Notes under the pieces: model-generated
Database searches by the model: none
What the model saw: the letters and a program-made list of their open reading frames with translations, nothing else
Told to the model about the DNA's origin: nothing
Shown here: piece by piece, positions 1,329 through 2,905 of the stretch
Layout of the letters: every line of letters starts with the position of its first letter
Numbering within the stretch: the stretch's first letter is position 1
From: Bacilli bacterium
Lineage (GTDB): Bacteria; Bacillota_I; Bacilli_A; RF39; UBA660
Length of the DNA: 64,000 nucleotides
Reading direction: 5' to 3'
Assembly: GCA_017441845.1 (NCBI GenBank)
Contig: JAFRVB010000009.1
Span: forward strand, 38,841-102,840
Made by a program: the position numbers and the translations under genes

Positions 1329-1402
1329 TGGAGCGGATGAGGAGAATCGAACTCCCGTAGTCAGCTTGGAAGGCTGAGGTTCTACCATTAAACTACATCC
1401 GC
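1329..1402 (-). tRNA. tRNA-Gly (anticodon TCC), CCA encoded
   Basis: Reverse complement GCGGATGTAGTTTAATGGTAGAACCTCAGCCTTCCAAGCTGACTACGGGAGTTCGATTCTCCTCATCCGCTCCA; cloverleaf with TTCGA T-loop, 74 nt. Confidence 0.97.
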
Positions 1403-1565: not shown

Positions 1566-1594
1566 TTTACAAAAGAAAACCCTTGTGATATAAA
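1566..1594 (+). promoter_or_regulatory. SigmaA promoter for the large ncRNA candidate
   Basis: TTTACA-17 nt-TATAAA with extended TG (1586-1587). Confidence 0.65.
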
Positions 1595-1599
1595 TTAAG

Positions 1600-2165
1600 T
1601 ACAGTAGTAATACATTATTGTAATCATTTATTACAATAAAACAGTTTTCTGTAATTTGTATAACTACTCTGATACAGATATTTAAATCGTATTACATATA
1701 AGTAATTACGAACTGTATCAATTCTAATATGCTTTTCATATTATTTTATATAATAAGTTAAGCATATTAACTTTGGTACGCTAAGTTTTAGTAATTATTT
1801 CGTAATACATTGTGATTTAGATTGATGTGTTGGGGTATTGAATTACTTTAACTATTTTATGTAATATATATATGATTTATGTTAGCTACTGAAGTTTTAT
1901 TTCAATTTCGTTTAGGGCGTTTGGTGAGGCTTATGCATTACTATTTGGAATAAGACGATCTGGATAGATTTCTATCTGAAGAAGCTTATAGTAAAAGGAA
2001 GCTAATTTTACTGTAATGATGTTAATGAGTTGATTGTTGATTTGTTGTTAACACTGATTCAATCGGTTTGCTCTCATCTTTGCTTCGTTAAACTGGTTTG
2101 GGGAGATTTCCTTTCTTATAAGTGTTCGCGCAAAGCATTTATTTGAGAGGTCTTCTCTCTTTTTA
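1600..2165 (+). ncRNA. Large (~565 nt) highly structured non-coding RNA candidate, family unassigned
   Basis: No ORF >=60 aa. Promoter upstream, terminator downstream. Many nested helices (1615-24/1630-39, 1670-77/1713-20, 1726-34/1760-68, 1790-96/1841-47, 1604-15/1933-44, 2078-83/2130-35) and UUCG/UACG loops. Confidence 0.6.
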
Positions 2166-2169
2166 TTTT
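2145..2169 (+). terminator. Intrinsic terminator ending the ncRNA candidate
   Basis: GAGAG-gtctt-CTCTC followed by TTTTTATTTT. Confidence 0.65.
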
Positions 2170-2195
2170 ACAAAAAAATACTTTTATAATATAAT
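2167..2195 (+). promoter_or_regulatory. SigmaA promoter for HAD-typA
   Basis: TTTACA-17 nt-TATAAT. Confidence 0.65.
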
Positions 2196-2218: not shown

Positions 2219-2905
2219 ATGCGTATTATCGCAAGTGATTTTGATGAGACACTTTTAGTAAAAGATCATGATATTTTTGAAAAAAATGTTAAAGCAATCG
2301 ATCATTTCATCAGTAAAGGAAATATCTTTGTAATTATTACTGGAAGATTATATACAGATATAAAATTATTATTAAATAAACATAATATTCATTATTCATT
2401 TCTAATATGTCAAGATGGAGCTAAAATACTAAATGAATTTGATTATTCTATAAAAGATCATCTATTACCTAAAGAAAAGATAGATGAAGTAATAAAGATA
2501 TTTGATAAACATAAATTAGATTATTATTTAGATGATGGTTATAATATTACTACTAATAAGAATGATTGTATAAAAATAAATTCTAAGATTAGAGATAGAG
2601 AAGAAGCTAAAGAAGTTTTAAAAGAAATAAAAGATAATGTAGATGTTTATGCATACCTTTCTAGATCATATATAAATATTATTGATTCTAATACATCTAA
2701 ATCTATTGCGTTAGAATATCTTATGTATCATGAAGATTTTAATAAAGAAGATATATATGTAATAGGTGATGATGTTAATGATTATGAGATGTTGAGTGAG
2801 TTTAATGGAGGAGTAATGACTAAACATAATAAGAAATTAGATTCACTAAATAAAAAAGAATTTGATACTTTATATGAATTCATTGAATATGTAGAAAATA
2901 ATTAA
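2219..2905 (+). CDS. Cof-type HAD-IIB family hydrolase
   Basis: DFDETL motif I, ITGR motif II, SK and GDDVND motifs III/IV. Confidence 0.85.
   Translation: MRIIASDFDETLLVKDHDIFEKNVKAIDHFISKGNIFVIITGRLYTDIKLLLNKHNIHYSFLICQDGAKILNEFDYSIKDHLLPKEKIDEVIKIFDKHKLDYYLDDGYNITTNKNDCIKINSKIRDREEAKEVLKEIKDNVDVYAYLSRSYINIIDSNTSKSIALEYLMYHEDFNKEDIYVIGDDVNDYEMLSEFNGGVMTKHNKKLDSLNKKEFDTLYEFIEYVENN

Follow-up and report, generated by a model that had tools for sequence, protein, structure and literature searches.

Bacterial RNAs of several hundred nucleotides (nt) whose helices are supported by covariation are rarely newly found, and the described families OLE, ROOL, GOLLD, and raiA are old and widespread, so that their origins are untraceable. 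ROOL RNA (RF03087) was reported by Weinberg et al. in 2017 with an average length of 581 nt (PMC5737381); its self-assembly has been shown, and OLE RNA was seen as a homodimer by cryo-electron microscopy (cryo-EM) (PMC12286853). Here we examine a locus that an initial annotation, made from the sequence alone, had described as either a divergent ROOL-like RNA or a new large class of noncoding RNA (ncRNA). It lies in a 64,000-nt stretch of DNA (the window, to which all positions refer unless a contig is named), corresponding to contig C5:38841-102840 of a Bacilli metagenome-assembled genome (MAG) of 0.78 Mb and 67% completeness. On balance, we favor the view that at positions 1599 to 2169 of the plus strand a stand-alone gene encodes a stable and highly structured ncRNA of an uncatalogued, clade-restricted family, predicted to work as a trans-acting folded RNA. 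The proposed gene and its own transcription signals are the following:

1599 to 2169, plus strand: ncRNA of the L subtype, about 571 nt, with the 5' end placed 5 to 7 nt past the -10 element and the 3' end within the T-run (fold z score of -7.7; covariation in alignment A3).
1566 to 1594, plus strand: RNA promoter read from the sequence, with a -35 element TTTACA (1566-1571), a 17-nt spacer, and an extended -10 element TGaTATAAA (1586-1594).
2100 to 2169, plus strand: intrinsic terminator supported by covariation, with a long hairpin (2100-2126/2134-2160) that begins with a conserved GGGGAGA and a T-run (2161-2169).

We first consider the fold of this unit as a single sequence. The plus strand from 1600 to 2169 folds at -151.1 kcal/mol, compared with -109.9±5.3 kcal/mol for dinucleotide shuffles (z = -7.7), whereas the minus strand reaches only -93.8 kcal/mol (z = -4.4). 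The RNA is rich in U and G (U 43%, A 29%, G 17%, C 11%), 31 of the 204 pairs in its minimum free energy (MFE) structure are G-U, and the coding strand of the neighboring plus-strand gene is A-rich. Because of the two z scores and this difference in composition, the fold is beyond chance and specific to the plus-strand RNA. Several statements of the initial annotation are borne out at this level, namely the G+U bias of the plus strand, an extended -10 promoter at 1566-1594, and an ORF-free unit of 0.57 kb: no open reading frame (ORF) longer than 38 amino acids (aa) occurs between 1403 and 2218, and none is conserved among the homologues described below. Every sequence string quoted in that annotation also lies at the positions it gave. 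Its terminator, placed at 2145-2169, needs to be redrawn. A scan does list a small hairpin (2145-2159) with the T-run there, but this hairpin is a local alternative found in this sequence only, and the conserved stem is the longer one listed above.

About 14 distinct homologues, plus near-duplicates, were collected through whole-genome searches, pattern scans of genome and metagenome collections, and contigs encoding relatives of the downstream phosphatase. They come from rumen MAGs and metagenomes, every source being a ruminant-gut sample, and the relatives of the host MAG are rumen MAGs labeled uncultured Firmicutes or Erysipelotrichaceae (RUG343, RUG13444, SRR8387716_bin.23). Three subtypes can be distinguished. 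The L subtype (the window, G004, L018/L088, L020/L085, L022, and L075) measures 560 to 605 nt, about 575 nt. The S subtype (G001, G002, L019, L025, and L082) has approximately 310 nt, with a 40-nt hairpin in place of the 290-nt domain of L, and the T subtype (G003, L077, L081/L090, and L089) has 330 to 480 nt, with a middle region of its own and without the 35-nt block that L and S contain. Common to all subtypes are the promoter, a related 5' end with its 5' hairpin, a three-way junction, a self-complementary linker, and the long terminator hairpin; the core common to the three is about 170 nt long. Judging from these homologues, the L subtype has enlarged the 5' hairpin into an accessory 5' domain of 290 nt that the other two do not possess. 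The promoter keeps the form TT(T/A/C)ACA-N17-TGnTA... in all L, S, and T homologues, with the 17-nt spacing fixed and the spacer sequence free to diverge; a consensus promoter scan passed over it in the window only because its -10 element ends in A.

The distribution of the family is narrow. A 32-mer motif searched with up to 3 mismatches in 301 genomes of the taxonomic family matched this genus only, and so did the covariance model R1 run over 401 family and 399 class genomes (genus g1). With its filters off, R1 gave no match in the typA neighborhoods of 10 other genera, and in the two of these ten that were read for ORFs (G014 and G006), no long stretch free of ORFs precedes typA. On this sampling, the RNA family does not extend beyond a single clade of genus rank, made up of uncultured ruminant-gut Bacilli with small genomes. 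A mobile or repeated element was considered and rejected: the locus is single copy in the host genome, and none was found in phage, plasmid, and viral collections, where the one viral pattern match was a chance match within a coding region. The metagenome pattern matches L021, L023, and L024 were likewise discarded as chance matches in a GC-rich coding region.

We then derived a consensus structure. For the L subtype, RNAalifold was run on five L sequences (alignment A3) and yielded 152 pairs. Both sides have changed in 28 of these pairs, compared with 10.1±2.3 in column shuffles (0/500 reached this count), and sliding the 3' partners as a control gives 3 to 9 such changes; 93.7% of the cells are paired, and compensatory changes occur in both halves of the RNA. 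In the 3' domain of nine L and S sequences, 15/43 pairs have changed on both sides (9.1±1.4 in shuffles) with 97.9% of the cells paired, and across 14 sequences helix D and the terminator have 96% of the cells paired and 7/16 pairs covarying. The terminator hairpin covaries in 4/11 lower-stem pairs and in 5/6 pairs of its inner hairpin. The elements of this structure, on the coordinates of the window, are as follows:

1599 to 1890, plus strand: 5' domain, L subtype only, closed by helix P1 (1603-1615/1879-1890); from RNAalifold and pair counts on five L sequences.
1617-24/1630-37, 1665-75/1827-37, 1689-95/1702-09, 1715-41/1754-79, and 1858-63/1869-74, plus strand: inner helices of the 5' domain.
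1894-1905/1945-1956, plus strand: helix A, enclosing the invariant block in the L and S subtypes; 4 of 10 pairs show both-side changes when L and S are compared.
1911 to 1945, plus strand: invariant block of 35 nt, UUUAGGGYGUUUGGUGAGGCUUWUGCAUUACUAUU, with a predicted hairpin at 1922-1930/1935-1943.
1962 to 1977, plus strand: helix B, a hairpin GGAUAG-AUUU-CUAUCU, L subtype only.
1981 to 2086, plus strand: three-way junction of helices D, C, and E, in all subtypes.
1981-1985/2082-2086, plus strand: helix D, 5 bp, closing the junction; paired in 14/14 sequences, 3/5 pairs covarying.
1986-1996/2006-2016, plus strand: helix C; 6 pairs with both-side changes in the L sequences.
2018-2037/2059-2078, with a tip at 2043-46/2050-53, plus strand: helix E; 5 pairs with both-side changes in the L sequences.
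2087 to 2099, plus strand: single-stranded linker GUU-AAAC-UG-GUUU, containing a self-complementary 10-mer (2090-2099).

The helix exchanges are readily seen in individual elements. Helix D occurs in five forms in the 14 sequences of alignment A5 (GAAGC/GCUUC, GAAAC/GUUUC, GGAAC/GUUCC, GGAAU/GUUCC, and GGAAU/AUUCC), L has GUUUUAUUUC/GAAAUAAGAC for helix A where S has GAAUUAAAUUUC/GAAAUUUAAUUC, and the tip of helix E is UGUU-GUU-AACA in L and UGGU-GUU-ACCA in S. For helix B, the variants GGAUAA/UUAUCC and GGAUGG/CUAUCC were found in L018 and L022 by eye only, as the alignment register shifts there. Single-sequence folds of one S and one T RNA (z = -4.3 and -5.5, respectively) contain the same three-way junction and terminator without any alignment.

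The comparison of homologues recommended in the initial annotation gives both-side changes well in excess of shuffles, and its individual helices fare unequally. Those at 1615-24/1630-39 and 1726-34/1760-68, as well as GATAG/CTATC and AGTAAAA/TTTTACT, agree with the comparative structure. On the contrary, TGATACAG/CTGTATCA (1670-77/1713-20), AGTAATT/AATTACT (1790-96/1841-47), CTTTGC/GCAAAG, and the two long-range pairings (1605-15/1933-43 and 1600-04/2011-15) show no compensatory change in five homologues and do no better than shuffles. Most of the unsupported segments prefer other partners in the comparative structure, for example in 1665-75/1827-37, 1715-41/1754-79, and 1603-15/1879-90.

The 35-nt block is nearly invariant in 11 L and S sequences, with flanks that are less than 60% identical, and is absent from T; L022 and L075 have a 2-nt insertion within it. 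One may ask whether it marks a small-protein or leader-peptide locus, in which the block would supply a ribosome-binding site, GGUGA, and the start codon of a mini-ORF beginning MHYY. GGUGA does stand 5 nt before the AUG at 1933, the same word is the ribosome-binding site of the downstream phosphatase gene here, and the one base of the block that varies gives either AUG or UUG (UUG in S, L018, L022, and L075). However, the mini-ORF has 4, 6, 19, 25, or 29 codons depending on the homologue, with only the first four conserved; conservation reaches 20 nt further upstream at every position, with no synonymous variation; and the block is missing from T and has its Shine-Dalgarno sequence and start codon buried in a predicted hairpin. 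We regard this explanation as very improbable. Longer reading frames were also examined as coding candidates and rejected: a 38-aa ORF (2030-2146) is shortened to 10 codons in G004, and a 24-aa ORF across the block meets the 2-nt insertion in L022 and L075 and stops or missing starts in G004 and the S subtype.

Helix D and the terminator are joined by the linker, which every subtype conserves with the consensus C(G/U)NN-AAAC-NN-GUUU-GGGG and which is unpaired in the MFE folds of all three. It is the only position in the 216-column core alignment with a self-complementary 8-mer or 10-mer in 14/14 sequences, the background being 1.9% of 10-mers. Its center is GC in S and T, UG in four L sequences, UA in L018/L088, and AU in L020/L085, and the two central bases are unable to pair with each other within one molecule. 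Since the center changes only in ways that keep the self-complementarity, the palindromic linker may be the best candidate for an RNA-RNA homodimer contact, which we offer as a lead and not as a finding. Cofolding uses the linker for the dimer in S (ddG of -9.9 kcal/mol), and the other two subtypes prefer trivial hairpin swaps. The alternative to such a contact is a symmetric site in the DNA, although the UG center is not palindromic as DNA.

Conserved segments that are predicted to be unpaired, in a stand-alone gene with promoter and terminator and with the narrow, fast-evolving distribution typical of small regulatory RNAs (sRNAs), could also belong to a base-pairing regulator or sponge, whose linker GUUAAACNNGUUUGGGG or, in L and S, invariant block would pair with RNAs encoded elsewhere. 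We found no extended complementarity in the 0.78-Mb assembly, from which a target could be missing given its 67% completeness. The longest antisense match (18 nt, on C10) falls in a nonconserved part and stays within chance, as 38/200 simulated queries reach 18 nt. The size and structure of the RNA also far exceed the needs of a seed-type sRNA, and we consider this alternative decidedly unlikely.

We then looked into the genomic setting of the RNA, which occupies an 816-nt gap between a tRNA gene and a phosphatase gene:

1329 to 1402, minus strand: tRNA-Gly(UCC), found with ARAGORN and Rfam, divergent to the RNA; the upstream neighbor in the L and T subtypes.
2167 to 2195, plus strand: promoter of the phosphatase gene, TTTACA-17-TATAAT, found by scan with 11/12 matches and overlapping the end of the T-run.
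2219 to 2905, plus strand: Cof-type HAD-IIB phosphatase gene (NCBIfam TIGR01484 and TIGR00099; Pfam PF08282), outside the RNA.

The phosphatase (HAD) gene is followed by typA/bipA, and this HAD-typA pair is constantly downstream of the RNA at all loci seen. The tRNA-Gly gene is likewise the upstream neighbor in L018, L020, L022, L075, L041, L077, L081, and L089, and in the S subtype its place is taken by gpmI. In outgroups that lack the RNA (L079 2279-2503, L083, and L084), the gene order is tRNA-Gly - HAD - VTT-domain gene - typA, with 48 to 52% identity for HAD; there, tRNA-Gly(UCC) is only 117 to 160 nt from HAD, without a match to the RNA model in between. Aligned to this empty site, the whole unit, from promoter to terminator, corresponds to one insertion. 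Because related genomes show the empty site, we read the RNA as an inserted stand-alone gene and not as a 5' untranslated region (UTR). The initial annotation had already argued that the unit is not just a 5' UTR, on the grounds that the next gene has its own promoter; the scan finds that promoter, and the outgroup arrangement, with tRNA-Gly directly beside the phosphatase gene, strengthens the argument. In addition, one S-subtype lineage (G001, L019, and L091) has a 1.7-kb surface-protein gene between the RNA and HAD. In G001 and L019, the two loci whose RNA sequence was read, the RNA has remained intact; for L091, the gene order shows the inserted gene beside HAD.

The inserted gene encodes a 550-aa leucine-rich-repeat surface protein with LRR_5 and SpaA-like domains and a C-terminal membrane anchor (L017 2843-4510, L019 1793-3451, and L091 1-1260). 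The HAD and typA genes of G001 contain in-frame stops (L017 4551-5230; G001:C84), reflecting assembly errors near contig ends or pseudogenes.

We propose that the RNA would act in trans as a folded molecule, either bound to protein or self-associating, and not as a leader of HAD. Its working part would be the 3' core; in L and S, the helix A loop would present the 35-nt invariant block as a further module, and the palindromic AAAC-NN-GUUU linker would be the candidate homodimer contact. Several observations weigh against this proposal. The RNA is always upstream of the same HAD-typA pair; its most conserved nucleotides border the terminator and reach into it, and its arrangement, in which a terminator follows a junction closed by a short helix, is found in riboswitches too; and the HAD -35 element is not recognizable in L022, L075, and L089, where read-through could matter. 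The trans action itself is deduced from gene anatomy alone, the comparative evidence comes from approximately 14 sequences of one clade, whose shared ancestry inflates covariation statistics, and the linker palindrome reflects three independent changes, with a chance probability of about 0.05, and could equally be a DNA operator.

The constant position, the riboswitch-like geometry, and the missing -35 elements would speak for a cis leader whose junction senses a ligand or protein and gates the terminator, thereby tuning read-through into HAD (and typA) atop the HAD promoter. The common core, in which a 5-bp-closed junction is followed by a 13-nt conserved linker and a terminator with an invariant 5' strand, would suit such a device. 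What speaks against it is the HAD promoter, located immediately past the T-run with a conserved 17-nt spacing in most homologues, so that the usual expectation for an attenuator, no promoter between terminator and gene, does not hold outside the three loci named above. A promoter-like -10 element (TATAATATACT) likewise precedes HAD in the outgroups that lack the RNA. Inspection of alignments A3, A4, and A5 revealed no conserved antiterminator pairing for either terminator strand, the candidates AUCUCU/GGAGAU and 5' end/AUUACUA not being kept across subtypes. The RNA is unchanged in G001 and L019, where the 1.7-kb gene with its own promoter separates it from HAD, and leaders of 330 to 600 nt with lineage-variable 5' domains are unusual. 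Altogether, we judge a cis leader unlikely and retain the stand-alone, trans-acting RNA as our working proposal.

Two sequence elements were noted upstream of the RNA promoter. A box TTTACGTAAA is located at 1521-1530, approximately 40 nt upstream of the -35 element; its counterpart is TTTACGTCAA in L018, L020, and L088 and, in the S subtype, TTGACGTAAA directly after the gpmI stop codon. As it is kept in two different upstream contexts, the box may serve the RNA promoter as an operator or an UP-like element. There are also two copies of the word ACTATTTACAA, at 1510-1520 and 1562-1572, 52 nt apart; the first copy is followed by the TTTACGTAAA box and the second contains the -35 element. This repeat may represent a duplicated promoter element.

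To place the RNA among known families, we ran cmscan with all 4227 Rfam 15 families, and at the gathering threshold the only match was tRNA-Gly. The region 1300-2300, searched at E<=10 with permissive filters, gave noise only (snoRNA and sRNA models, E>1), with no ROOL, GOLLD, OLE, raiA, or HEARO, and the homologous loci L002-L004 gave no match at E<=1. The ROOL model RF03087 at E<=10 found no match in five genomes of the genus (G000-G004), and as no control genome matched either, the direct cmscan is the stronger result. The housekeeping RNAs were located elsewhere, in accordance with the earlier remark that the unit bears no RNase P, transfer-messenger RNA (tmRNA), or signal recognition particle (SRP) signature: type B RNase P RNA (RF00011) is at G000:C4:161371-161703 with 274.7 bits and was found in 8/8 genomes tested, tmRNA is at C6:12045-12410 (ARAGORN), and the SRP S-domain is at C1:12511-12576. 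6S RNA (RF00013) was rejected as well, since it is at G000:C11:130444-130624 (48.5 bits) and is a rod with a central bubble, whereas the RNA described here is multibranched. Within the genus, RF00013 scores 48.5 bits in G000 and 36.7 bits in G004 and finds no 6S RNA in G001, G002, and G003, where it is very divergent or missing.

A very divergent member of one of the known large ornate RNAs (ROOL, GOLLD, OLE, or raiA) is an explanation that is already largely refuted. The resemblance that suggested it lay in a length of about 575 nt next to the 581-nt average of ROOL (PMC5737381), a rumen origin, and a tRNA neighbor. Rfam has no match for it, whether the 1-kb region is searched at E<=10 or three homologous loci at E<=1; the common core is only approximately 170 nt with one multistem junction; the RNA is found in one genus rather than several phyla and has no phage, plasmid, or viral copies; and the sister subtypes do not have the 5' half to which the length of about 575 nt is due. 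The adjacency to a tRNA gene, which the initial annotation counted as a ROOL likeness, is inherited synteny with a divergent tRNA-Gly and is lost in the S subtype, where the RNA stands behind gpmI. Of the two options offered at the outset, the divergent ROOL-like RNA is not supported, and the new large ncRNA class, stand-alone, covariation-supported, and outside any known family, finds support at RNA-family level.

The word new means here that there is no family under which to file the RNA, and the claim concerns the family, not a mechanism. What makes this family distinct is that it is confined to one clade, that its empty insertion site is visible, and that its three subtypes differ by whole domains built on a 170-nt core. 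Together, these three circumstances open a view on the origin and elaboration of a large structured RNA. The narrow distribution and the uncultured hosts limit its broader importance, and the compact 170-nt core is tractable for structural study. A bolder version of our proposal is that a young ornate RNA was born whole in the gap between tRNA-Gly and the phosphatase gene, grew by domains added on the 5' hairpin, and forms an RNA-only homodimer or oligomer through the linker. We hold this version to be quite unlikely as a whole; if true, the RNA would stand beside the ROOL, GOLLD, and OLE assemblies as a small and evolutionarily recent equivalent and would show how such RNAs arise and are elaborated.

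Among described systems, terminating riboswitches with a three-way junction (e.g., purine and TPP) have a like order of closing helix, junction, conserved linker, terminator, and constant gene. The RNA described here differs from them in showing no conserved antiterminator in the alignments inspected, in having a promoter after the terminator and poorly conserved junction loops, and in carrying large, variable 5' domains; it also persists with a gene inserted downstream. The raiA motif (Weinberg et al. 2017) is a structured RNA of about 200 nt from Firmicutes that is separate and gene-like upstream of a protein gene, and the 3' core is of similar size, but there is no model match, the neighboring genes are other ones, and the raiA motif spans two phyla. 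OLE (RF01071) is also a large, structured, stand-alone RNA, from anaerobic Firmicutes, and is a homodimer in cryo-EM (PMC12286853). Its model does not match here either, and in contrast to the wide conservation and the many invariant nucleotides of OLE, the present RNA is young and fast-evolving.

ROOL is likewise large, with many helices, stand-alone, first seen in rumen material, and sometimes located beside tRNA genes, and it self-assembles (PMC12286853), which the palindromic linker might permit here. ROOL has six multistem junctions, as opposed to one conserved junction in the RNA described here, whose other junctions lie within the L-only 5' domain and for which no pseudoknot is supported (the candidates h1 and g are without covariation). 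Finally, ROOL occurs in several phyla and often in prophages, whereas this RNA is found in one genus, outside phages and prophages, with half of its length specific to a lineage.

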